Part shown: positions 1-39,324 of the stretch, piece after piece
Layout of the letters: each line of letters opens with the position of its first letter
Numbering within the stretch: position 1 is the first letter of the stretch
IMG/VR virus record: IMGVR_UViG_2703718821_000011
DNA length: 39,324 nt
Strand: one strand, 5' to 3'
Source: a virus
Taxonomy: Duplodnaviria; Heunggongvirae; Uroviricota; Caudoviricetes
Made by a program: the position numbers and the translations under genes
The notes under the pieces: generated by a model
The model's database searches: none
The model's input: the letters and a program-made list of their open reading frames with translations, nothing else
What the model was told of the DNA's origin: nothing

Positions 1-305
1 TCATGATGAACCTCGGCTAACAAAGTGTTCGCAAGCAGCTGCAAAGCGATCCAGTCCGGTCGTCACCTCTTCTTCGCTGACATTGAGCGCAGGCGCAAAA
101 CGCACCACGTTGCCACCCGCAATCAGTACCATCACGCCTGCTTTCGCCGCTTCCTGAGAGATCTGTTTCGCTTGCCCGGCGTAATCGGCATTCAGTACAC
201 AGCCAATCAGCAAACCTAAGCCGCGAACTTCACTGAACAAACCATAGCGGTGATTAATAGTATTAAGACGCTCAACAAACCAGTCGTGACGCTGTTTAAC
301 GCCAT
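1..305 (-). CDS. astC: Host succinylornithine/acetylornithine aminotransferase (AstC/ArgD family), 3' terminal ~100 codons only; gene interrupted by prophage insertion
   Basis: Minus-strand translation ends ...[96 protein letters not shown], which I recognise as the AstC C-terminus; similarity stops abruptly near nt 305 where phage-end sequence begins. Exact junction uncertain by a few bp. Confidence 0.7.
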
Positions 306-436
306 TAATATAGCGCGGCGATTTTTTTGATACCGATTTGCATTTCATTTGATACTGCTGAAAAACGCCGATACGCAACTTATTTGATACTAAATCGGCG
401 CTTTTCTTTTGAGTTTTAGAATGAGTTTTTAAGCGC
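306..436. repeat. Prophage right-end terminal region with three direct TTTGATAC repeats, candidate transposase end-binding sites
   Basis: TTTGATAC at ~326-333, ~348-355 and ~383-390, between the host junction and the mom stop codon; Mu-family ends carry multiple spaced transposase binding sites. Terminal dinucleotide could not be fixed. Confidence 0.45.
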
Positions 437-1174
437 TCATTCACTCTCTTTCAAACCAGTTTTAACTGTTTGTGGTTTTGGGTAAGGCTGGACTTTGAAT
501 AGCTTTGTGTTGAGGCGTTTTTTGGCCCTCTTGTTCAGAAACCGGATGTAACGAAACTGTCGGAACTTATGAACATTGGCTCTGTCAATATTAGCCCTCA
601 GATGTTCACCTCGTTGTCCGCCTCGTTTAATGGCATTCCTGCAAATCTCGTGATACCACTCGCCATCAAGTTCATAGAATATTGATTCATGGCTGCCTAC
701 ATAATCAAAATTGCTTGCCTGATACACGACACCAAGACAGCCACAACGCTCATCTGCAAACGACTGAACCCACTGTACCTGCGGATAAAGCTGCCTGATT
801 AGCTTGAGCGCGTAACTGATTGCCCTTGATTCGGAGTTTCTCGGCATACAGTCATGCAGCCATAGCCGGTTAAGCTCCATATATTCTCGGTTCTGCGTAC
901 CCGTTACGACGCGTGCACCACTGTTTGGGTTAAGGGCGTAACCCCATTGCATTACGCCAACAAGTTCCCGTTCTGAAAATATGCCCAGATGAAGGTAGGA
1001 GTTATTTACGAAACGGTGGCTGTAATGTTTATTGACGATGACCAGTCTGGCCAGCCAGCAACTTATTGTCTCAACCCGCAACTCACGGGAGCCATAACCA
1101 ACGATATTGTCGTTATAGCGAATAAGTTCAGGCGTGCTGATGATTCGGGATGTGACTTGCTTTCTGTTCCCCAC
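437..1174 (-). CDS. mom: Mom-like DNA modification protein (anti-restriction); true start may be internal to the ORF
   Basis: 245-aa ORF immediately downstream of and overlapping a Com homolog, last gene before the prophage end, exactly as in Mu. Assignment is by position and com linkage, not by recalled sequence identity. Confidence 0.6.
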
Positions 1175-1328
1175 GACAGGATTTCCTTGTGTATGTGGGG
1201 TGCTCTGTGGCGCTCGGAGATGTGATTTGATTGAGGGTTTTACAGCGCGGACATTTTACTTCCAGATAACTGAAACTGGCCCGTGCCAGTAGCTTATTGC
1301 AGTGTCGGCACCGTATGTTTCGATACAT
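1128..1328 (-). CDS. com: Com, zinc-finger translational activator of mom
   Basis: [30 protein letters not shown]... matches the Mu Com pattern (IRCKNCNKLL...IRCPRCK); overlaps the mom 5' end. ORF is open up to 1373, so a longer N-terminus is possible. Confidence 0.75.
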
Positions 1329-2228: not shown

Positions 2229-2411
2229 TCAGAGCGGGGTCGGGTCGTTTGGGGATGACGGTGCCTGTGCTGTTTTACTGAGTTTTTCAGCTGCCGCATC
2301 ATCAATTTTACGGCGAATATAATTTCTGATGACCTTATAACCGCCGCTCACCAGATATAACGCACTGACCACAGCGCAGAAATAAAGCAGCATTGTATGA
2401 ACGAATGTCAT
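2229..2411 (-). CDS. Hypothetical 60-aa small membrane protein (one N-terminal TM helix, basic juxtamembrane segment)
   Basis: MTFVHTMLLYFCAVVSALYLVSGGYKVIRNYIRRK...; AAGG-type RBS upstream; located in the cargo block. Confidence 0.5.
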   Translation of the reverse strand: MTFVHTMLLYFCAVVSALYLVSGGYKVIRNYIRRKIDDAAAEKLSKTAQAPSSPNDPTPL

Positions 2412-2523
2412 ATAACCTTACCTTTGATATTGACTACATAATTCGTTATCGGGTAAAAACATCGAAGCGACTGATAACCACTCCTTCGGGAGTATTTTTA
2501 TTTTCCTTTATGGGTTAGGTAGC

Positions 2524-2559
2524 TCCCGCCAGCCATATCATGACCGGCGGGATTTTTTT
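2524..2559 (+). terminator. Rho-independent terminator on the plus strand (GC stem TCCCGCC...GGCGGGA followed by T7)
   Basis: Stem-loop followed by TTTTTTT on the plus strand only; overlaps the stop codon of the minus-strand esterase gene. It would stop rightward transcription entering the esterase gene antisense. Confidence 0.55.
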
Positions 2560-4567
2560 ATTCTGTTACCGCTTTTTTCACTTCCACCACAATGCTGTCA
2601 ATCAGCACCGGGTAAGTTGCATTTTTGGTGATATCCGTTACGCGGAGTTTGTCCACCGGGAAAGTTCCTACTGGTGACTGCGTCAGGGTAAACGCGGCAC
2701 CATCCTGACCATCAATAACCGGAATAACCTGAAGGCTGTTATTTCCTGCAAAACGGAAGGCCAGCGTATGCCATTCATTATCAAATGCACCAAAGGTTCC
2801 CAGTTTCTGGTTATTTGTTGCCACTTTTGCATTGTGGTACATCACATTCAGGTCTTTTGCGTCTGTCTGGATGTAGAACGATGCCAGCAGATTATTCCCT
2901 GCATCCCCTGTCAGGGTGACACCCTGCGGCAGAGAGGAAACCGGCCAGTAAAGCGCCATGACATACTGGTTTGCCACCAGGTCGCCAGGTACTTTAAAAC
3001 GACAACTGATTAAACCACCATTTTTCAGCAGTTCAGCACCAGTACCGGCATCATGAGCCAGATACCAGGATGATTTACCTGTTTCCTTGGTCAGTTTCAT
3101 TGCCTTACCACCTGTGCCTCCTGCATCACTGATAATTTCAGCTTTACCGCCAGCCGGCTCCCAGCCCTGGGCTTTCAGATTTCCTTCTGACTCACTGACA
3201 CGGTAAGACAGCAGTGTTGTGGTTACTGCTTCAGTTTCAGAAGATGGAACATCGGCTTTTACTGTGGTTCGCCCTGCATGAGTCAGAACAGCCGTGGCCA
3301 GACGGTCAGAAATAATACCCCGGCGCGCCCAGGCACTGAAATGGCTGGCCCGGTCCGCAGATGTCCAGGTAGCGGCACTGTTACGCCACGTTGAGCCGTA
3401 ATAACCAATGGATTCAATATCCGGGTCTTCTGCCGGATTGTTGGTGGGTACATTCACGCCATTTTCATCTGTCATTAATGGAACGAAATGAATGTTTTTA
3501 TCTGTTTTGTTTTTGTAGCCGCCATAGATTGCCTGGTATGCTGGTTCATTTTTCTGTTTCCAGAAATACGTGGTATCGCCACAAATCCACGGAACGCCAG
3601 CAGCACTGCCACCGGTACACTGTTCCGCCTGTTCAGCCAGGTCTGCGCGGAATTTTTCCACCATCGCCAGAAACAGCGCAGAATGCTCCGTCGGCTTCGC
3701 ATCAATATCAAACTCGCCCTGCATCCACACCACAGCAAGCAGGCGGTTTTTCGGGTTCTTCGCCAGTGCCGCTTTTGTCCGGCTGATTAAGTCCTTATAC
3801 AGCGGCTTATCCACACCCCAGCGGGCTGAGTCCTCTGAAGCACCCGTGCTGTCACTGTACGTGCCGTCAGCACCCGCCGTGAATGCAGAACCACCACGGC
3901 AGCAGGGAACCAGCAGAATCCCCGCATCTGCCGGAATAAACGGCAGCAGTTTTTTGGCAATGTGAAGCCCCTGACCCACGGTGCCATATTGCCCTTTAGC
4001 CACATCCGCTTTCGGGTGATTTTTTCCACTCATATCCTGCACATCATGCAGACAGTGGTCGGCCAGAATGATGTCGTTATACTGACAGGCTTTACCTCCC
4101 GGCGTGACTGTACTGCGACGGGCTAACTGCATAATACGCGGTTCGGGGCGGTCATATGTCTCCGGCAGTGGCAGACCTTCACCGTAAGCCATACCGTTTG
4201 ACTGACCAGCAAGAACCACCACGTAATACCAGGAAGGGGAGCTGGAAGCAGTTTCATTTCCTGACGGACGGGTATGTGTTTCAGCATTATCCCAGTCTGA
4301 CGGTTCAGCAGTACCGGCAACATCAGCACTTAACGGAATGACCGCACCAATACCCGCTCCGGTAATTTCCACACTCGGATCACCGGATACTGGCCTTACC
4401 CACAGGCAATCCCGTGTATTAAAACTGATGAGACAGTCAGCAAATGTCATTCCTCCTTTTGTTTCGGCCGGAGGAAAGGGAGCCTCAAGAAATGCCGCTG
4501 TACCACCGGAAACTTTAACAGTAAAGTTTCCGGGCATTGATGATAGTTGAACCCATTTGGACGTCAT
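2558..4567 (-). CDS. Cargo protein: SASA/SGNH-family carbohydrate esterase (sialate O-acetylesterase-like) with an N-terminal ~110-aa domain and a C-terminal ~250-aa beta-rich domain
   Basis: Motifs VVVLAGQSNGMAYG (GQSN block with catalytic Ser) and VVWMQGEFD (WxQGExD block) are hallmarks of the SASA esterase family. No obvious signal peptide. Sits between gin and com-mom, where Mu has no gene. Confidence 0.65.
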   Translation of the reverse strand: MTSKWVQLSSMPGNFTVKVSGGTAAFLEAPFPPAETKGGMTFADCLISFNTRDCLWVRPVSGDPSVEITGAGIGAVIPLSADVAGTAEPSDWDNAETHTRPSGNETASSSPSWYYVVVLAGQSNGMAYGEGLPLPETYDRPEPRIMQLARRSTVTPGGKACQYNDIILADHCLHDVQDMSGKNHPKADVAKGQYGTVGQGLHIAKKLLPFIPADAGILLVPCCRGGSAFTAGADGTYSDSTGASEDSARWGVDKPLYKDLISRTKAALAKNPKNRLLAVVWMQGEFDIDAKPTEHSALFLAMVEKFRADLAEQAEQCTGGSAAGVPWICGDTTYFWKQKNEPAYQAIYGGYKNKTDKNIHFVPLMTDENGVNVPTNNPAEDPDIESIGYYGSTWRNSAATWTSADRASHFSAWARRGIISDRLATAVLTHAGRTTVKADVPSSETEAVTTTLLSYRVSESEGNLKAQGWEPAGGKAEIISDAGGTGGKAMKLTKETGKSSWYLAHDAGTGAELLKNGGLISCRFKVPGDLVANQYVMALYWPVSSLPQGVTLTGDAGNNLLASFYIQTDAKDLNVMYHNAKVATNNQKLGTFGAFDNEWHTLAFRFAGNNSLQVIPVIDGQDGAAFTLTQSPVGTFPVDKLRVTDITKNATYPVLIDSIVVEVKKAVTE

Positions 4568-4666: not shown

Positions 4667-5227
4667 TTATTTTTCCGAAACGCTCGCAGGATAATAACGA
4701 TAAAGGGTTGAAAGACCGATATCAAAAATAAGTGCCACCTGTCTTCGACTGACACCCCCGGCCAGTAAACGCCCGACCTGCTCGTATTGTTCCTGCGTGA
4801 GACGGCGGGGTCTGCCGCCGGTTCGTCCCCTTTCACGGGCAGCTGCAAGACCAGCCCGTGTCCGTTCGACAATTAATTCACGCTCCATTTCTGCCAGCGC
4901 ACCCATTATGTGAAAAAAGAAGCGCCCCATGGGGGTTGACGTATCAATGTTGTCAGTAAGACTACGAAAATTTATCCCCTGTTGCTGTAATTCATCTGTC
5001 AGCGCAACAAGGTGGCGCATACTGCGCCCCAGCCTGTCCAGTTTCCAGACCATCAGCGTGTCACCGGGTTTTAGTTTCTTCAGTGCCCGCTTCAGTCCCG
5101 GCCGCTGTGTCGTTTTACCACTCATTTTGTCTTCAAAAATCTGCTCACATCCTGCACATTCCAGCGCATTTCTTTGTAAACCGGTGTTCTGGTCATTTGT
5201 TGATACGCGTATATAGCCAATCAGCAT
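4667..5227 (-). CDS. gin: Gin/Hin/Pin-family serine recombinase (DNA invertase)
   Basis: MLIGYIRVSTNDQNTGLQ... N-terminal resolvase/invertase catalytic motif, C-terminal HTH; adjacent to the gix-flanked segment and transcribed away from it, as in Mu. Confidence 0.85.
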   Translation of the reverse strand: MLIGYIRVSTNDQNTGLQRNALECAGCEQIFEDKMSGKTTQRPGLKRALKKLKPGDTLMVWKLDRLGRSMRHLVALTDELQQQGINFRSLTDNIDTSTPMGRFFFHIMGALAEMERELIVERTRAGLAAARERGRTGGRPRRLTQEQYEQVGRLLAGGVSRRQVALIFDIGLSTLYRYYPASVSEK

Positions 5228-5281: not shown

Positions 5282-5307
5282 ATCCCTGAAACCTCGGTTT
5301 ACGGGAT
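5282..5307. other. gix-like crossover site (left), 26-bp imperfect palindrome ATCCCTGAAACCTCGGTTTACGGGAT
   Basis: Core AAACCTCGGTTTAC matches the Mu gix / Salmonella hix consensus as I recall it (TTCCTGTAAACCGAGGTTTTGGATAA, reverse complement). Confidence 0.6.
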
Positions 5308-5661
5308 ACGGTAAACAGGGCCGCGAATGCCCTGCCATCAAACGGTACGGCTGTTGCAGCAAGCAGGCTGGCAAATGCCCGCAGAATCAATGGTGTCGCC
5401 TTTGACGGCACGCAGGATATAAACATTACGTCAGGAATGCCGGAATCAACGGCCAATCAGCGTTATGTTACAGGGGTAAGACTGGGAGCGCAGGCATTAA
5501 GCGGCGGACTGGAATATAATTACTCCCTGTCATCAGGAAATGTGATTACCGGTTTTAAGACTGACGGAGACTGGGAAATGCGTGGTGGTGATGACCGTGT
5601 TTATTACAGACAGATACAATATTGTATTAATGGGCATTGGGTATCCGCTGCAAGTATTTAA
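5290..5661 (+). CDS. Silent alternative tail-fibre C-terminal cassette (S'v-like), promoterless in this orientation; would fuse to the constant part of S after inversion
   Basis: Plus-strand frame open from the stop at ~5287 encodes NLGLRDTVNRAANALPS...INITSGMPESTANQRYV..., paralogous to the expressed S segment NLGLRETVNKAADALPS...INITSGMTQSTADGRYV.... Confidence 0.55.
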   Translation, partial: NLGLRDTVNRAANALPSNGTAVAASRLANARRINGVAFDGTQDINITSGMPESTANQRYVTGVRLGAQALSGGLEYNYSLSSGNVITGFKTDGDWEMRGGDDRVYYRQIQYCINGHWVSAASI

Positions 5662-5731
5662 TTAACGGGGGCATAGCACACAGCAGCCAGCATCTGAAAT
5701 ATGCGTTATTTCAGACAAGCATTGCCTGTAT

Positions 5732-6304
5732 ATGGCGATAGTATTATTCCTGTTTTTATCATTGATTTACATGGTGATGTTTATGCAACTGATTAATGTC
5801 AAACGATATTACCCGAAAGACAAACCCTATGGTGAGGATGTTCAGTATTTCCAGAGTGAGGACGGAAGGGATTTTTATGAATCTATCCCGCTTTTTACAA
5901 AGAAATACAAACTCTGTATTTCGCCTGTAACGGGTATTATCTGCTCTGTTGCTGAAGATGTCTCTGCTTTATATCCGGCAGGTTTTACTGTTGTTGAAGT
6001 GGACGAACTGCCGGAAGGTGTGAATATTGACGGTAACTGGCAGTTTTCTGATGGCCTGATATCAAAGGTGCCGGTAAACTGGAAGACGGTTGCTGAAAAG
6101 CGTCGCTCATCGCTGCTCCAGGAAGCCAACGAAACCGTGGATGACTGGAAAACAGAATTAAAACTGGACATGATTAGCGATGAAAATAAATTACAGCTGA
6201 CGCGCTGGATGGCGTATATCCGACAGCTTAAAGAAATGCACTTTAATGATATTGCCAGTGAGGGGCATTACCAGGCGATTCCCTGGCCGGAAAAACCGGA
6301 ATAA
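5732..6304 (+). CDS. Tail fibre assembly protein (U/U'-type chaperone), inside the invertible segment; likely true start near 5783
   Basis: Follows the silent fibre cassette on the same strand; C-terminus ...IPWPEKPE is typical of tail-fibre assembly proteins; position matches the Mu G-segment U/U' genes. Confidence 0.6.
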   Translation: MAIVLFLFLSLIYMVMFMQLINVKRYYPKDKPYGEDVQYFQSEDGRDFYESIPLFTKKYKLCISPVTGIICSVAEDVSALYPAGFTVVEVDELPEGVNIDGNWQFSDGLISKVPVNWKTVAEKRRSSLLQEANETVDDWKTELKLDMISDENKLQLTRWMAYIRQLKEMHFNDIASEGHYQAIPWPEKPE

Positions 6305-6338
6305 TTCAGAGGGTGCATTCAGCACCCTTTTCTGTGGT

Positions 6339-7250
6339 TTACACTGAACTTACCGTTCTCCAGGTATTATGAATATAAATCTGAACCGGGCGATAATAGA
6401 CCCCACCGATATTGTCCGCAGACCGGGAGCCGGTTTCCTGCACGTTAATACCGGAAAGCATACAACCGGAAGGTGCGCTGTAATTCCATGACATTTCATT
6501 GCCTCCGGGTGAATGATAGCTCTGTGCTCCAAGCTGAACATTCTGTACATACCGGCCATCTGCGGTTGACTGCGTCATTCCTGACGTGATGTTGATATCC
6601 AGCGTTCCGTCAAAAGGAACACCATTAATATTTCTTGGGGTGGCGAGTCTGTTTGCTGCCACGGCGGTTCCAGCCGATGGCAGGGCATCAGCAGCCTTAT
6701 TTACCGTTTCCCGTAAACCGAGGTTATCGATAAAGGTTCCTTTGTCCTGGATATCCGCGCCATTCTGGTCCCTGCGCAGGTAACGGTTATCACCTTCGCT
6801 CCTGCTGTAAACATCCAGATTATTACGGGCGGTTTCCGCATTCTCCAGGTCGGCAAGGTTCTGATCCTTCGCCAGGGCATTAACGTCAGCGGGACCAAGA
6901 CTGTTTTTTGTGGCAAGCGTCCCCAGACCAAGATAACCACGGGCCAGACGCTGGGCTTCCGCACCGGCATCAGCAATTTCTTTCAGGTTGTTTTTCCGGG
7001 AAAAGGCATTCGCAGCGATAATGGCTTTAATGGACAGCGTAAGCTGGTTTAACTGCGCCTTATCCGGCTGAATACTGGCTTCAGCCAGAATATTCAGCAG
7101 TTCGGCCTGGAGAATATTCAGCCAGTCCTGACCAATCCAGCTGATACCTTTTTGTCCGTCACCTTCGGTAAACCAGGTGGTGGTATTACTCTGCGCCGGA
7201 GCCAGTTCAGGCATATTCGCCACGCCGGAATTATTATCAACATGGAACAT
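6339..7250 (-). CDS. Tail fibre protein S (constant part plus currently expressed variable C-terminus)
   Basis: Continuous ORF that crosses the right gix-like site at the FIDNLGL codons; variable part lies inside the invertible segment; located between gp48 and the invertase, as in Mu. Confidence 0.7.
   Translation of the reverse strand: MFHVDNNSGVANMPELAPAQSNTTTWFTEGDGQKGISWIGQDWLNILQAELLNILAEASIQPDKAQLNQLTLSIKAIIAANAFSRKNNLKEIADAGAEAQRLARGYLGLGTLATKNSLGPADVNALAKDQNLADLENAETARNNLDVYSRSEGDNRYLRRDQNGADIQDKGTFIDNLGLRETVNKAADALPSAGTAVAANRLATPRNINGVPFDGTLDINITSGMTQSTADGRYVQNVQLGAQSYHSPGGNEMSWNYSAPSGCMLSGINVQETGSRSADNIGGVYYRPVQIYIHNTWRTVSSV
6708..6733. other. gix-like crossover site (right), TTCCCGTAAACCGAGGTTATCGATAA, inside the S coding sequence
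   Basis: About 21 of 26 positions match the Mu gixL sequence as I recall it; inverted relative to the left site. Confidence 0.6.
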
Positions 7251-21276: not shown

Positions 21277-21397
21277 ATTGCCTCCGCATAAAGGATGAAT
21301 ATAAAATAAACAGGCGGTCAGTGTACGCTTAACTGGTAAAGTCGGTGCCTGCCTCCGGGTGGATCATGTATGCGGGTTCGACCCCCGCCACTGACCG

Positions 21398-22729
21398 TTA
21401 ATCAATATCTCCTTCCAGTACCTCAAGCATTCCGCCCCGGATATCCGATTTCAGCTTATCCATATTGATAACCCGGTAAGCATTAACAATCACATCCAGT
21501 TTATCCGGCTGACGCTTCAGGCTGTACGGTGCATTAACGGCAATCTGCACACTGCCATCCTGATTTTCCACGATATACATCAGATTGTTGTGCCGTTTGT
21601 CCCACAGTACCGCTTTTGGCCTTGCCAGCATTGCCGGTAAGCGCCCGAAATCCTCCGGCGTCAGGGCGATACCGTCATTCTGATGTTTCATGCTGTCCGC
21701 ATGGAGCACATTTTTACCGCTCATCGCCAGCAGGCGGGCCGGTGGCGTTCCCGTCCGGCTTTCCACCGCCTGCGCAATGCTTTCGGTCATAAAGCCCAGC
21801 GTGCGGATATCGTTACCGCCTCGCCGGGTTTTCATGATGTTTTTTGCCCAGATGCGGAACGCCAGTTGCCGCTCCGGGCTGTTGTTCATCTCCTGAACCA
21901 CCATTTCCCGCAGCGCCGGGCTTTTCACCTCGATCAGTTTACGGATCAGCGCCTGGTCTGTGCCGAACGCCGCCGAACCGGGGTTATATGACCAGCCCAC
22001 ATCCGGTGTCATGGTTCTGGTGCCATCTGAATATGTGGTCACCGGCATTTCTCTGACTTCCCCGGTCTGCTTATCCACGCCAGCCTCAACATTGCGGGTG
22101 GAGAGATGATCCTGACCGGATGAAACGGATAACCCCATCGCATCCAGACGGGCCTGAGACAATGGCCGGACACGGCAGCGACAGTTCCAGCCATTGGGCG
22201 GGTAGTGTGTATTCCAGAACGGATCGTCATAGCGGAATACCAGACCGTTAAGGGCGGAATGCGCCGGGCGGGTGCGGCTGTCCATCACCGCCACATACTG
22301 CCAGAACGGATGCGTGTCCGTGTTGTTCATCATCTGCGTGTAACGCCCGGCATTGTAAGCCACACGGGTGTTCACGTTGTAAATCAGCGCCAGACGGCGG
22401 GGACTGCCCAGCTGCACTTCTTCCGCGTTACCGGCACTGTCCACCACAATCTGTTTTCCCCACCATCCCAGCTTTTGCAGGCGGGGTGTCAGTGTGCGGA
22501 TAAATGCTTTCTGTGAAATCCCCTCATCAACAGCACGCTGCACTTCCGCCTGTAGTGTGGTCAGTACGTCCAGGCGTGCCACTTTTGCCGCCGTGAATGA
22601 ACGGGCATGAACATCTGCGTTTGTTTCGAACCAGTTCCAGCTGATATGCGCCCCTTTGGCGCGGAAGTATGCCACCGCCTCTTTTGAGGGAAGCGTGGCG
22701 GCATAACCTAAATCAATCCCCTGTGCCAT
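21398..22729 (-). CDS. Head morphogenesis protein (Mu gp30, F)
   Basis: 443 aa immediately downstream of the portal gene. Confidence 0.75.
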   Translation of the reverse strand: MAQGIDLGYAATLPSKEAVAYFRAKGAHISWNWFETNADVHARSFTAAKVARLDVLTTLQAEVQRAVDEGISQKAFIRTLTPRLQKLGWWGKQIVVDSAGNAEEVQLGSPRRLALIYNVNTRVAYNAGRYTQMMNNTDTHPFWQYVAVMDSRTRPAHSALNGLVFRYDDPFWNTHYPPNGWNCRCRVRPLSQARLDAMGLSVSSGQDHLSTRNVEAGVDKQTGEVREMPVTTYSDGTRTMTPDVGWSYNPGSAAFGTDQALIRKLIEVKSPALREMVVQEMNNSPERQLAFRIWAKNIMKTRRGGNDIRTLGFMTESIAQAVESRTGTPPARLLAMSGKNVLHADSMKHQNDGIALTPEDFGRLPAMLARPKAVLWDKRHNNLMYIVENQDGSVQIAVNAPYSLKRQPDKLDVIVNAYRVINMDKLKSDIRGGMLEVLEGDID

Positions 22730-35003: not shown

Positions 35004-35231
35004 TTAGCTGACTTGTTTCGCACCAACAGAACGGCATATTCCGCTGTAAACTTCTGTCGCACCTTCGCGATCAAGTCCGGCAGATATCACCATTCGTGTG
35101 CGGTCATTAAATTCAAAAAGTAAATCGCCACATTCTTTATTTTCGGCCAGTGAAATCACCTTCACGTTATCGAAATTAACCAGGTAAAAGCGTCCGTAAA
35201 TATCAGGAATATAAAATACCGCCATAATCAC
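35004..35231 (-). CDS. Small early protein in the Mu kil position (75 aa)
   Basis: First ORF downstream of B, overlapping its stop; positional analogy to Mu kil only. Confidence 0.35.
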   Translation of the reverse strand: MIMAVFYIPDIYGRFYLVNFDNVKVISLAENKECGDLLFEFNDRTRMVISAGLDREGATEVYSGICRSVGAKQVS

Positions 35232-36160
35232 ACCTGTGAGAGTAATTCAGGGTTGGTATAAACCTCTTTAAAGGCCGCATTAATATGTTTTTCTGTCAGC
35301 GCCGCACCTTCACCGCTGGCGGTGAGCCACGCCTGGTTAAGCGTATGTGTCAGAACGCGTAACGCTCCCGGCTTTTCAGCGATAGCCTGCATGACGGCCA
35401 GCTCGGCCTCACCACTGATACCCCATGCCCTGGCAATGGCCAGCACATCCGCCTTTTTGGCCTTGCGAAGTTGTTTTGTACGGGCAAGACGGCTGAACAG
35501 GCGCGATAAATCATCAAAGGCGCGGCGTCCACCTTTAAACAATCCGCGCGGGTTACCAATAAGCACCATCCCGATCCCCGTGGCGTCCTGAATTGCCCGG
35601 AGTTGCTCCAGACCGTCAATACCAAGATGATCCGCCTCATCCACAATCACCAGTCCACGCGTTCCCATCAGGCGACGGCGGATGGCGCGGGATAATGCCC
35701 CTTTGTTCGCGCGGGTGTAATCAATCCCCAGCGCATCGGCCAGCTCCAGCAGACACTCCGTGACGCTGGAGTGCGCGGGTGACAGGGTGATCATCCAGGT
35801 GTTTGGTTGCTCCTGGCAGTAATTACGGGCAGTGGCCGTTTTACCCACACCCGGTACGCCCACAATAACGTTAATACAGCCCATCAGACGAACCGCCTGA
35901 AACAGTGCGCGCAGCTCCTGGACTGTCTGCGTTTCCACAAACTGCGGCGGTTCCGGCAGTGCGCTTTGTTTATTCCAGTTCTCATACCAGGAACGCAGGG
36001 AAGCAGCCACAGCAGCGTTATCGCCTTTATATTTTCCCTTACGGAAAGCCGATAATGTGCCGTCGGAAATTCCCGCCTCTCTGGCGATGGCATACTGCGT
36101 CAGTACGCCGCCATCAATAAGTTCATCAATGGTCTTGATTACATCGTTAATATCAGTCAT
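35228..36160 (-). CDS. B: MuB-like AAA+ ATPase, transposition target-DNA activator
   Basis: 310 aa; Walker A GVPGVGKT, Walker B LVIVDEADHL; directly downstream of the transposase gene. Confidence 0.8.
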   Translation of the reverse strand: MTDINDVIKTIDELIDGGVLTQYAIAREAGISDGTLSAFRKGKYKGDNAAVAASLRSWYENWNKQSALPEPPQFVETQTVQELRALFQAVRLMGCINVIVGVPGVGKTATARNYCQEQPNTWMITLSPAHSSVTECLLELADALGIDYTRANKGALSRAIRRRLMGTRGLVIVDEADHLGIDGLEQLRAIQDATGIGMVLIGNPRGLFKGGRRAFDDLSRLFSRLARTKQLRKAKKADVLAIARAWGISGEAELAVMQAIAEKPGALRVLTHTLNQAWLTASGEGAALTEKHINAAFKEVYTNPELLSQV

Positions 36161-36231: not shown

Positions 36232-38322
36232 TCAGGCCAGCGGGTCATTTTCTTTTAATTTCGCTTCCAGCAACTGCAATCCCCGCTGGAAATTACGCTC
36301 GTATTCTTCATCAGGTTCATCGTCAGCGACCGGTTGCTGAACGATCACCGCATTACCCACAGGGCGATAGATGTTTTCCAGCCATGGCTCCTGCTGCTTG
36401 TGCTCCAGCACGTTGACCACCTCATCCTCGGCATCACGGATTTTTTCCTCTGCGCGTTTACGCATGCCTTTAAGGCGTTGCTGCTGTTTGTAGTATTCCG
36501 CGCTGACCGGGAAGGCTTCGCGTTTATTGCCGCCCCATACCGCCTCGCAAATCACGCTGCCATCCAGGCGACGTACGGTAATTCGTTCGGCATCATGAAT
36601 GTCATAGCTGATAAGCACCTTGCGGCCATGCTCATCACGCAGCTCGGGAGCGTAGTAAATATTATTCAGCCAGCGTATTTCACAGCGTCTTACAGGGCGT
36701 TCCACCATCGGCCGGAACATATCCCGCAGCTCAACATCGGACAGCCATTCAATTTCCGTGTCCTCTTCCGCCAGGCGTTTTTTTCTGAACTCCGCCGGGC
36801 TGTAATGCTTGCCGTTCGGTTTTATGGGTAATTCATCGTGCGGCCGGTTGTTGTACCACTCAACACCATCACGAATGGCATCAATCAGTTCAGCCCAGGA
36901 CGGTAAATCACGCATCGCTGACTGCTGCCGGGCGTTCAGCCGTTTGCCCTGTTGCAGGGCACTGAATGCCGAGCGTAAATCGCGGTTGGTTTTACGTAAC
37001 GTCTCGCGATCTGCACCTTTCCCGAAATAGGTGCGGTATTTACGGGCTATGCGCATCGGTAATGTGCGGTTAAGCCGTTCGATAATGCCCCGTCCCTGCG
37101 GGTTACCGGCAATCCCTGTCGGGTGATTAATCCCCAGTCGCGGCAGAATCCCCACAACTTCCTTATCCAGGATGTCGGCGGTTTCCCCGGAACCGTTATC
37201 CGAGTAATACAGAAACGGTTTGCCGTGATTACGAATACCGTGCTGTATGGCACCGGCTACGGCGAAAACATTTTCAGCCAGGTCAAGGCTCCAGCCCACC
37301 ACAAAGCGCGTGCCACCGTCGATAACAAAGGTCACTTCCGGTGCAAATGGCCGCCCGTGAACCGGGTGCCTGCATTTCAGCTTCATGCCGTGACCGTCAC
37401 CAATCCAGACATAATTCACCGGCATTTTTGACCAGTCGCGGCGCGTGAATCCCTCAAGCTGGCGATATTCACTGCCGGTCACCCGGCCTTTTTGTTTCAC
37501 CACTTCCGGCAGTTTCTTCATTGCGCGGCGAATGGTGTCATAAGACGGCATGATATCGAGCATATAAGGCTCATCAGCGTGCCGGTGCTGCCATTCAGCG
37601 ACAAAATCCTCGTAGGCCTCGGTCATTGGTCGGCCGTTTGACTGGCGATACTGCGCCAGAAATTCGGGCAGCCAGTTAATATCTTCGGCTTTTATTTCCT
37701 GGCGCTTACCCGGTGCCAGCAAAAGCAGGCGTTCGGCGGCGTTCTGCGCCTTGTTAAAGGCTGCAATCCAGCGTTTCAGCGTGATTTCACTCAACGCACG
37801 GCTGTTTCCCTTTTTGGCGTTCGCCGTCTCAACCATTGCCACAATGCGCTCGTCCAGCTGCGAACGTGCCAGGTTGTCAACGATAAACCGGATAGCTTTC
37901 GCACAGCTGAAACCGGGTTGTTGCGCGACTTTCATCACTTCGCTGACGATCGCGATTCGTGCATCAGCCACCTGGCGCTGGTTTTCAGTCAGGGCATTAA
38001 GGCGTTCAACCATCAGTTGTGGTGATCCGCGATATGCCTCCACCGCATCAACCACGGCAGGCGAGCGTCTGGCCTTTGTCACCACCGGAGCCGGTGATTC
38101 ATCGGCTTTTTGCGTCATCAGTTGCAGGGCGTAGCGTTCACGTAATGCCTGCTGCGTCACTTCAGGTAAACAGTCGATACTGTATTCAGTTGCTTTAGAG
38201 CCTGAGCGACGACGGGAACAACAGCTTTTCCCTTGTACGTAACGTTGTAATGCCTGGCGAATACCTTTTGTTGTAGCAGGCATTCCGGGCGCGCCAATCA
38301 GTTCTTTTGCAATGACATACAT
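36232..38322 (-). CDS. A: MuA-family DDE transposase
   Basis: 696 aa; candidate DDE residues in WIGDGH, YYSDNGSGE and GRGIIER contexts; sits between ner and B. Confidence 0.8.
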   Translation of the reverse strand: MYVIAKELIGAPGMPATTKGIRQALQRYVQGKSCCSRRRSGSKATEYSIDCLPEVTQQALRERYALQLMTQKADESPAPVVTKARRSPAVVDAVEAYRGSPQLMVERLNALTENQRQVADARIAIVSEVMKVAQQPGFSCAKAIRFIVDNLARSQLDERIVAMVETANAKKGNSRALSEITLKRWIAAFNKAQNAAERLLLLAPGKRQEIKAEDINWLPEFLAQYRQSNGRPMTEAYEDFVAEWQHRHADEPYMLDIMPSYDTIRRAMKKLPEVVKQKGRVTGSEYRQLEGFTRRDWSKMPVNYVWIGDGHGMKLKCRHPVHGRPFAPEVTFVIDGGTRFVVGWSLDLAENVFAVAGAIQHGIRNHGKPFLYYSDNGSGETADILDKEVVGILPRLGINHPTGIAGNPQGRGIIERLNRTLPMRIARKYRTYFGKGADRETLRKTNRDLRSAFSALQQGKRLNARQQSAMRDLPSWAELIDAIRDGVEWYNNRPHDELPIKPNGKHYSPAEFRKKRLAEEDTEIEWLSDVELRDMFRPMVERPVRRCEIRWLNNIYYAPELRDEHGRKVLISYDIHDAERITVRRLDGSVICEAVWGGNKREAFPVSAEYYKQQQRLKGMRKRAEEKIRDAEDEVVNVLEHKQQEPWLENIYRPVGNAVIVQQPVADDEPDEEYERNFQRGLQLLEAKLKENDPLA

Positions 38323-38323
38323 A

Positions 38324-38572
38324 TCATGACGCCTTTCTCATATAGCTCTTAACCTGGTATCGACTGGGCCAGATTTCTTCAGGCGATACCCCAAGAGCAT
38401 CAGCAATTATTTGCTGATACGGTCGGCAAGGAGTACGTAATACGCTTTTCAGCGAATCCCTGCTGTAACCAGCCTTTAAAGATAAAGAGCGCAGTGATAA
38501 GCCAGCCATGTGTAAGCGCGCCTTGATGATTTCAGGCGGCCAATCGTGATCTGAAACTTCTCTTCTACTCAT
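38324..38572 (-). CDS. ner: Ner-like DNA-binding regulator (Ner/Nlp family)
   Basis: ...QQIIADALGVSPEEIWPSRYQ matches the Mu Ner C-terminal motif (EQIIANALETKPEVIWPSRYQ); GAGGAAG RBS upstream. Confidence 0.8.
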   Translation of the reverse strand: MSRREVSDHDWPPEIIKARLHMAGLSLRSLSLKAGYSRDSLKSVLRTPCRPYQQIIADALGVSPEEIWPSRYQVKSYMRKAS

Positions 38573-38739: not shown

Positions 38740-39324
38740 ATGAACATGAAAAACAGTTCTTTTCTCGACGAAGGAAAAGAACCAGTGATCGAACGGATTT
38801 TTCGTCTTGCAGAGCGTTACAAATCGAGAAGTGAGGCGGCTAGAGCATGGGGAATAAACGTTCAGACATTGCAGAACTACTACAAAAGGAGAAACAATCA
38901 GCCGCCACCACAACCAAGAAAGCACCATCTCCAGAACATTGCAGAAAGAGAACATGTATCTATGGAGTGGCTAGTCCATGGTTATGGTGATGAGCCAAGC
39001 ATGAAAAAAGAACCAATTGAACAAGCAAAAAGAACAAAAAAACAAAGAATTGATGATAGTGATTCCATCATCATGAGGGCGTGGGACTCGCTAACTTCAT
39101 CTGAACAAGAGATTTTGTCCAACTTATTGATCAGAAAAGGGGCCGAACTACTAACCGTTTTGCTTGATACAGATATTCAAAAACTGCACTCATTGAGCGG
39201 AGTCAAAAGAGCACTAGCATTGAGTCTACAAGAGTTACCCGATGATACTGTAAGAGAGATTTATGAAGAATGTGAAGCTAAGGTTAATCATTTAAATGTA
39301 ACCCAGAAAAAGGCTAGTGCGTAA
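38740..39324 (+). CDS. c: Mu c-type lysogeny repressor
   Basis: Divergent from ner; C-terminal ...LLIRKGAELLTVLL...QKLHSLSGV...LPDDTVREIY resembles the Mu repressor C-terminal region; AAGGA RBS before the ATG at 38740. Stop codon is the last triplet of the window. Confidence 0.65.
   Translation: MNMKNSSFLDEGKEPVIERIFRLAERYKSRSEAARAWGINVQTLQNYYKRRNNQPPPQPRKHHLQNIAEREHVSMEWLVHGYGDEPSMKKEPIEQAKRTKKQRIDDSDSIIMRAWDSLTSSEQEILSNLLIRKGAELLTVLLDTDIQKLHSLSGVKRALALSLQELPDDTVREIYEECEAKVNHLNVTQKKASA

Follow-up and report, generated by a model that had tools for sequence, protein, structure and literature searches.

The window, that is the whole analysed stretch of 39,324 nt, opens in a host gene and is otherwise occupied by a transposable prophage. 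Positions 1-308 hold a 3' fragment of host astC (succinylornithine transaminase) on the minus strand, recognised by its 100% identity to astC and a match to Pfam Aminotran_3, and positions 309-39324 hold a Mu-like prophage of the Sp18 type, assigned on the basis of full-length identity to sister copies and gene content. This portion extends from the right (mom) tip of the element to a repressor-like gene, the last base of whose stop codon is also the final base of the window. Measured on sister copies, the left tip lies about 272 bp past the window end, giving a predicted length of about 39,288 bp for the whole prophage.

Read from right to left, the gene order is Mom, Com, three small or cargo genes and a Gin-type invertase beside an invertible tail-fibre segment, followed further left by baseplate, tail, head and lysis genes, Mor, Gam, a MuB-type ATPase, the transposase, a Ner-like protein and the repressor-like protein. 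The DNA modification gene mom (437-1174, minus strand; Pfam Mom, E 2.6e-77), whose product shows 79% amino acid identity to Mom of Mu, stands where an earlier sequence-only reading had put it, after a set of short repeats at the right end. Upstream of mom and overlapping it lies com (1128-1328, minus strand), coding for the Zn-ribbon translational activator of mom, which carries PF10122 (Zn_ribbon_Com) on the source contig and is annotated as Com family in sister copies. The three genes after com encode a DUF826 protein, a DUF1378 protein and a 669-aa SASA/DUF6645 esterase-like protein, the last being a cargo gene at 2558-4567 (minus strand) between mom and the invertase. In this region, window positions 2261-2933 share ~80-85% DNA identity with genes of Stx phages, some of which are annotated as 9-O-acetyl-N-acetylneuraminic acid deacetylase (yjhS). 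The invertible tail-fibre segment (~5290-6725) lies beside the Gin-type recombinase gene (4667-5227, minus strand); it is inverted relative to the window in the copy of strain 61_150228, where the alignments show an overlap of ~160 bp at each border. RefSeq lists a 'tRNA-OTHER' in sister copies at about window positions 21360-21440, between the genes for head morphogenesis and virion morphogenesis; ARAGORN found no tRNA anywhere in the window.

Near the left end, a 696-aa transposase of MuA-type architecture (36232-38322, minus strand) matches Mu-transpos_C (63.8 bits, cut-off 21.7) and HTH_Tnp_Mu_1 (27.9 bits, cut-off 23.3), its rve match being below the cut-off. It is adjoined by a MuB-type AAA+ transposition ATPase (35228-36160, minus strand), which matches Phage-MuB_C (88.6 bits, cut-off 25; E 2.5e-25) and AAA_22, so that the element has the pairing of a MuA-architecture DDE transposase with a MuB-type ATPase near the left end that is expected of Mu-like phages (saltoviruses). 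A Ner-like HTH protein (38324-38572, minus strand; Pfam HTH_35) and the 194-aa repressor-like gene (38740-39324, plus strand) complete this end within the window; the latter is read toward the left end from a position equivalent to that of Mu c, and its HTH matches are weak.

Copies of the prophage in ygfK, cas3 and lsrC of other genomes are 99.8-99.97% identical over the full prophage length, further sister copies occupy ISEc22, rihA, the tail gene of another (lambdoid) prophage, a sulfatase gene and flgG, and Sp18 of O157:H7 Sakai sits in sorM. Altogether, >40 distinct junctions were found in other genomes, including ten additional left junctions and 29 additional flanked IMG/VR junctions; some genomes contain two to three copies of an Sp18-type prophage, and the transposase protein, a look-up of which returned other genomes only, has entries in 2842 blocks of the assembly collection. 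Rare alleles are likewise missing among the early-region proteins of the window. The same element is thus found at many unrelated chromosomal sites, as is typical of saltoviruses. The claim made from the letters alone, that a Mu-type transposition had struck a coding gene, is borne out by near-identical prophages at dozens of unrelated sites and by family copies with short target duplications. The element is a common, already known Sp18-type transposable (Mu-like) E. coli prophage. Sp18 itself agrees with it in all but 1 of the first 120 nt of the right end, in the type of left end and in having six end repeats. From Sp18 and its relatives it differs in its site only, which is astC here, sorM in Sakai and prpD-prpE for Phi804-3 of FRIK804 (PMC7430833), in line with the variable, strain-specific loci described for Sp18-like phages (PMC7430833, PMC10132054). 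Relatives of Sp18 in STEC also include the 'Mu-like phages' of CC119.

One family member departs from this uniformity. In the rihA copy of NZ_AP026099.1, the left 2.2 kb hold a different immunity region with a 213-aa HTH repressor, a different Ner and a 680-aa transposase variant, and the copy keeps the tips, the three octamers of the left end and a 4-bp duplication. This shows that immunity regions are exchanged as modules among members of the Sp18 family.

Termini of the element and the duplicated target

Aligning the window to uninterrupted astC fixed the switch from host to prophage to the base pair at 308|309, as the earlier reading had hoped such an alignment would: intact astC reads …GCCATTAA|GCATCTCTGG and the window …GCCATTAA|TATAGCGCGGCG. 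That reading had described the astC frame as intact for its last ~100 codons and broken at about nt 305, which is close to the actual remnant of 101 whole codons (306-406), to which the stop codon (1-3) and 2 nt from codon 305 are added; the fragment covers positions 310-402 of the 403 in the Pfam Aminotran_3 model.

The right terminus reads 5'-TATAGCGCGGCGATTTT, followed by the first end repeat (309-333, plus strand). It was fixed by junctions that differ in their flanking bases, namely six independent junctions, that of Sp18 and 16 right-end IMG/VR junctions. In window orientation, comparison of the sister copies gives the element as 5'-TATAGCGCGGCG … CACCTGGTTACA-3', with variable bases outside. 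The right tip is 5'-TATAGCG in every copy examined, with TA on the mom side in 27 out of 27 right junctions, so the suspicion that the first bases of the element do not read 5'-TG proved correct, and a non-TG tip on the mom side is a property of the Sp18 family. At the left end, the tip is TGTAACC in most copies and TATAACC at four IMG/VR loci, giving a family consensus of T-R-T-A. These four IMG/VR contigs, with the left end 5'-TATAACCAGG rather than TGTAACCAGG, represent four different insertion sites; the TA left tip has therefore evidently transposed too and appears, by this comparison, to be transposition-competent. The 5'-TG … CA-3' termini that characterise Mu sensu stricto are accordingly not those of the Sp18 type. 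The GTDB species representatives, scanned for both tips, contained neither and so added no evidence from other species. Counted by hand, the 'prophage Sp18' feature of the Sakai record NC_002695.2 seems to begin at the G of TGTAACC, one base further in than our left tip, and its published boundary may be wrong by that base.

We compared the right and left ends of eight sister copies (in ISEc22, ygfK, cas3, lsrC, rihA, the lambdoid tail gene, the sulfatase gene and flgG), of Sp18 and of two IMG/VR pairs, and all 11 of the 11 end pairs were flanked by a 4-bp direct repeat. The repeats of the eight sister copies are CGGA, GGAA, TGAA, GACA, CTTT, GTTT, TATA and CGAT, that of Sp18 in sorM is TAAA, and the two IMG/VR pairs have TGTT and TTCT. 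A 5-bp duplication was tried and rejected, as a shift by one base fails in 10 of the 11 pairs at the left boundary and likewise in 10 of 11 at the right; among the eight sister copies, seven fail for each shift. Moreover, empty sites rebuilt from the flanks and a single 4-mer restored intact lsrC and intact flgG, each matching at 296/296 nt without gaps. On the strength of all 11 pairs and of both rebuilt sites, the Sp18 family duplicates 4 bp of its target and not 5 bp. The 5-bp target duplication expected in the sequence-only reading, which is the length found in Mu sensu stricto, therefore does not apply to this family.

Applied to the astC copy, of which the right junction alone lies within the window, the 4-bp rule of the sister copies predicts TTAA as the flanking duplication, its right-hand copy being positions 305-308 (astC nt 914-917). 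The left junction beyond the window is predicted to read …CACCTGGTTACA joined to TTAAGCATCTCTGGTG, from astC nt 917 downward (in short …GGTTACA|TTAAGCATCTCTGG, and at greater length …GGTATCAAATGATTCACCTGGTTACA|TTAAGCATCTCTGGTGTGTTGATG…), and the predicted left flank …GGTTACA|TTAAGCATCTC would lead into the 5' part of astC and xthA. The junction DNA so predicted was absent from genome_contigs, metagenome_contigs and viral_contigs, collections that do not include the source draft genome. At the protein level, the predicted product AstC(1-305)+NVTR and its variants (duplications of 0-10 bp, two alleles) had no exact junction match among proteins that appear to derive from the GenBank annotation, in which a pseudogene would be hidden, and a homology search of the protein collection likewise returned no such 309-aa chimera. 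Two matches to the predicted AstC junction proteins were rejected, one as a frameshift allele and the other as contig-end fragments. These negative results at the DNA and protein level count for little.

The astC copy would be a simple insertion if its left end lies where these junctions place it. That the left junction was not found in the collections searched could also mean that the right end abuts astC as observed and the left end lies at another locus, intramolecular replicative transposition or recombination between prophage copies having inverted or deleted DNA, with the 5' part of astC elsewhere or lost; genomes with two to three prophage copies, able to mediate such rearrangements, do exist (PMC10132054). 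We regard this as unlikely. The make-up of the collections accounts for the failed look-ups, and the 179.5-kb draft contig contains the prophage in one piece, whereas a second copy would usually have broken a short-read assembly at the prophage ends. Furthermore, all nine of the nine complete-genome copies with both ends read, together with the two IMG/VR pairs, are simple insertions with matching 4-bp repeats, and simple insertion is the reading that we carry forward.

End repeats and the relation to Mu

Just inside the right tip, the octamer TTTGATAC occurs on the plus strand at 326-333 (R1), 348-355 (R2) and 383-390 (R3), so that the three spaced copies seen before mom from the letters alone are indeed there, beginning at 326, 348 and 383. 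The whole window has five matches to TTTGATAC on both strands against 1.14 expected, a number reached in none of 100 shuffles, and three copies within 65 nt are far beyond chance. R2 and R3 are each embedded in a 24-nt unit (333-356 and 368-391, plus strand), the two units forming a direct repeat with 79% identity. Counted from the right tip, the octamers are found at nt 18, 40 and 75, and the left end of sister prophages has them at nt 18, 113 and 165. Relative to each tip the orientation is the same, i.e., there are three copies per end that are inverted between the ends. They are kept in Sp18 and also in the copy that has a different immunity region and diverged neighbouring left-end sequence. 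Since the first copy is equidistant from both tips, and since a tight cluster on the right is matched by a split cluster on the left, the repeats are most likely transposase-binding sites of the right end, a putative assignment based on their arrangement. Several putative binding repeats at both ends in inverted orientation are again what a saltovirus is expected to have at the sequence level. In Mu, the end sites are laid out as L1-L3 and R1-R3, and the Sp18 type resembles this plan in having three repeats at each end, set close together at the right and split up at the left. The literature assigns Sp18 six putative transposase-binding sites (PMC2628397, citing Morgan et al. 2002).

The same stretch holds a terminator-like hairpin downstream of mom (360-406, minus strand) with a 13-bp stem, GAAAAGCGCCGAU...AUCGGCGUUUUUC, and a U run. 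The 13-bp hairpin appears in the minimum-energy fold of the mom-strand RNA, in a region with z = -4.0, and by this folding it would probably function as a terminator; simple promoter and terminator scans of positions 1-1500 returned nothing above shuffle expectation, and the terminator scan passed over the 360-406 hairpin because its loop exceeds 8 nt. As R3 is located in the loop of this hairpin and R1 and R2 share bases with one weak promoter-like match, the TTTGATAC repeats might be thought to serve mom/com regulation or transcription termination and not transposition. Against this, the left end, which lacks mom, has three inverted copies of the octamer, the first of them likewise at a distance of 18 nt from the tip; the octamer persists beside left-end sequence that has diverged, and the count of promoter-like matches is below shuffle expectation, all of which makes a purely regulatory role very improbable and leaves transposase binding as the preferred reading.

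How far the element deserves the label 'Mu-type', as it had been called from the sequence alone, depends on the part considered. The label holds insofar as the element is transposable and has MuA- and MuB-type genes, and it does not hold insofar as the transposase is distant from MuA (21-32% identity, in patches) and the ends of Mu are without TTTGATAC. The overall plan is that of Mu: repressor and ner stand at the left, A and B come next, and past the late region follow the invertible tail-fibre segment beside its Gin-type invertase and, at the right, the com-mom module expected of Mu sensu stricto; Mom is closely similar at the identity given above, and insertion into genes looks random. In contrast, the combination of a MuA-related transposase with the MuA end-site consensus, by which Mu sensu stricto is recognised, was not found. 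Mu is absent among the 25 tblastn matches listed for the transposase, and its ends, with tips reading TG/TG, lack TTTGATAC, which fits with a transposase of such low identity to MuA. Mu further has a 5-bp duplication along with its TG tips (PMC8705779, PMC5977238), unlike the Sp18 type with its TA right tip and 4 bp. Judged by its genes and ends, the prophage is a mosaic that joins a Mu-like plan and mom end with a different transposition module.

The closest isolated phages by transposase are the Yersinia phages vB_YpM_5 and vB_YpM_6 (Muvirus-class), which differ in host genus; the transposase is 79% identical in amino acids to that of vB_YpM_5. In the circularised record of vB_YpM_5 (MT374853.1), TTTGATAC/GTATCAAA triplets flank the junction from mom to the repressor. 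Within positions 1570-1910 of the stretch examined from that record, ~80-100 bp separate the octamer clusters of the right and left ends and could represent host DNA of the virion ends, collapsed in the record. Tips with TA in place of TG/CA have a parallel in transposable prophages of Leptospira (PMC8705779), which differ in having a B3/Tn552-type transposase, 6-bp duplications and TA at both ends, whereas in the Sp18 type the right end is always TA and the left end mostly TG, with TA in some copies. In 2021, every Mu-like and B3-like phage described by then was stated to have TG-CA conserved, and only 5-bp and 6-bp duplications were listed (PMC8705779). We found no description of a 4-bp duplication in Mu-like prophages, or of its combination with TA tips, in the searchable literature. 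Whether the Sp18 transposition module is mechanistically distinct from that of Mu, with a 4-bp stagger and transfer of a non-canonical …TA-3' end on the mom side, and in some lineages on both sides, is a question on which we lean only tentatively, and slightly less toward yes than toward no.

The astC fragment and the ast operon

The astC fragment at the right junction is preserved in its normal surroundings. Many complete E. coli genomes have an astC identical (100%) to window positions 1-308, and a megablast search with positions 1-330 gave a single astC 3'-end match per genome in 5424 of the 5426 complete E. coli genomes, at loci annotated with astC and astA. The window's own astC junction was present in none of these 5426 genomes. 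On the source contig LOJA01000082.1 (GCA_001607755.1, an E. coli draft), astC' is directly followed by astA-astD-astB-astE and, beyond the ast genes, by spy-side genes, cho and nadE in native order. The fragment overlaps astA just as in intact operons, and the flank of 10 kb is 100% identical to O91 strain RM7190. Because astADBE and the usual neighbours follow and this flank is identical throughout, the gene context identifies the fragment as the native gene of the astCADBE operon and not a paralog. Mu-type virions carry host DNA on their right end, and this general knowledge of Mu packaging lends some support to the notion that the astC piece is a duplicated fragment or paralog beside the prophage, e.g., host DNA co-packaged at the right end. 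Flanking host DNA is, however, not co-integrated in Mu-type transposition, and with 100% astC identity, the astA overlap, native gene order, 10 kb identical to RM7190 and one astC 3' end in nearly all complete genomes, we consider such an origin highly improbable and treat the fragment as native.

The junction has created a chimeric ORF of 147 aa (1-444, minus strand), in which 45-46 codons from the phage right end are fused to AstC codons 306-406; it is annotated as hypothetical protein KYV04063.1 (AML69_01555), served to identify the source contig and is a by-product of the prophage's entry. Another strain (GCA_014328525.1, JACFIW010000038.1) has an independent, second insertion of an Sp18-type phage in astC, with its junction, GCCGGG|TATAGCG, near locus position 4047. 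This insertion lies at codon 349 in the opposite orientation and yields a 385-aa AstC(1-349) fusion (…ADYAG|…) whose tail is encoded by the right end of the phage. That the same phage family has entered astC twice might suggest that the gene is the attachment site of an integrase-type prophage, a reading to which we assign next to no weight given the different codon and orientation of the second insertion, dozens of unrelated sites without common flanking sequence, a Gin-like invertase beside its invertible segment as the sole site-specific recombinase, and the finding that Sp18 is packaged but, like Mu, not circularised (PMC2669165).

Taken as a whole, we consider it very probable that an Sp18-type phage inserted in astC by transposition, using the TTTGATAC repeats as right-end transposase-binding sites, and that the AST pathway is off as a result. 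In the proposed sequence of events, the phage would have integrated by DDE transposition into chromosomal astC at nt 914-917 (codons 305/306); the three right-end and three inverted left-end copies of TTTGATAC would assemble the transpososome, which would link both 3' ends to phosphates of the target spaced by 4 bp and thereby give rise to the TTAA duplication. AstC would be split after residue 305 of 406, with a 39.3-kb insert placed between the ast promoter and astADBE. Toward the operon, mom points outward to astC', and mom is a late gene; because the hairpin and U run follow mom and mom is late, read-out into astADBE in the lysogen is unlikely. The arginine succinyltransferase (AST) pathway should accordingly be off in the source strain. 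Schneider, Kiupakis and Reitzer reportedly showed in 1998 that loss of AST impairs the use of arginine as a nitrogen source.

Implications for Sp18-type prophages

The case needs no new biology, being one more insertion of a well-known and very common STEC prophage, and it probably knocks out AST-pathway arginine catabolism in one strain. What is mildly surprising, and no more than mildly, is the combination of a 4-bp stagger with TA tips, which concerns the Sp18 family as a whole, the rest being already known. With the tips 5'-TATAGCG…GGTTACA-3' (window orientation) and the 4-bp rule, the limits of Sp18-type prophages can be set base by base, and an annotation that assumes the TG/CA tips of Mu and a 5-bp duplication may misplace their boundary by one base. 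Beyond annotation, an enzyme of MuA architecture that uses a TA tip and staggers its cuts by 4 bp amounts to a small experiment of nature, which bears on what sets the length of the stagger and on the specificity for the terminal dinucleotide.
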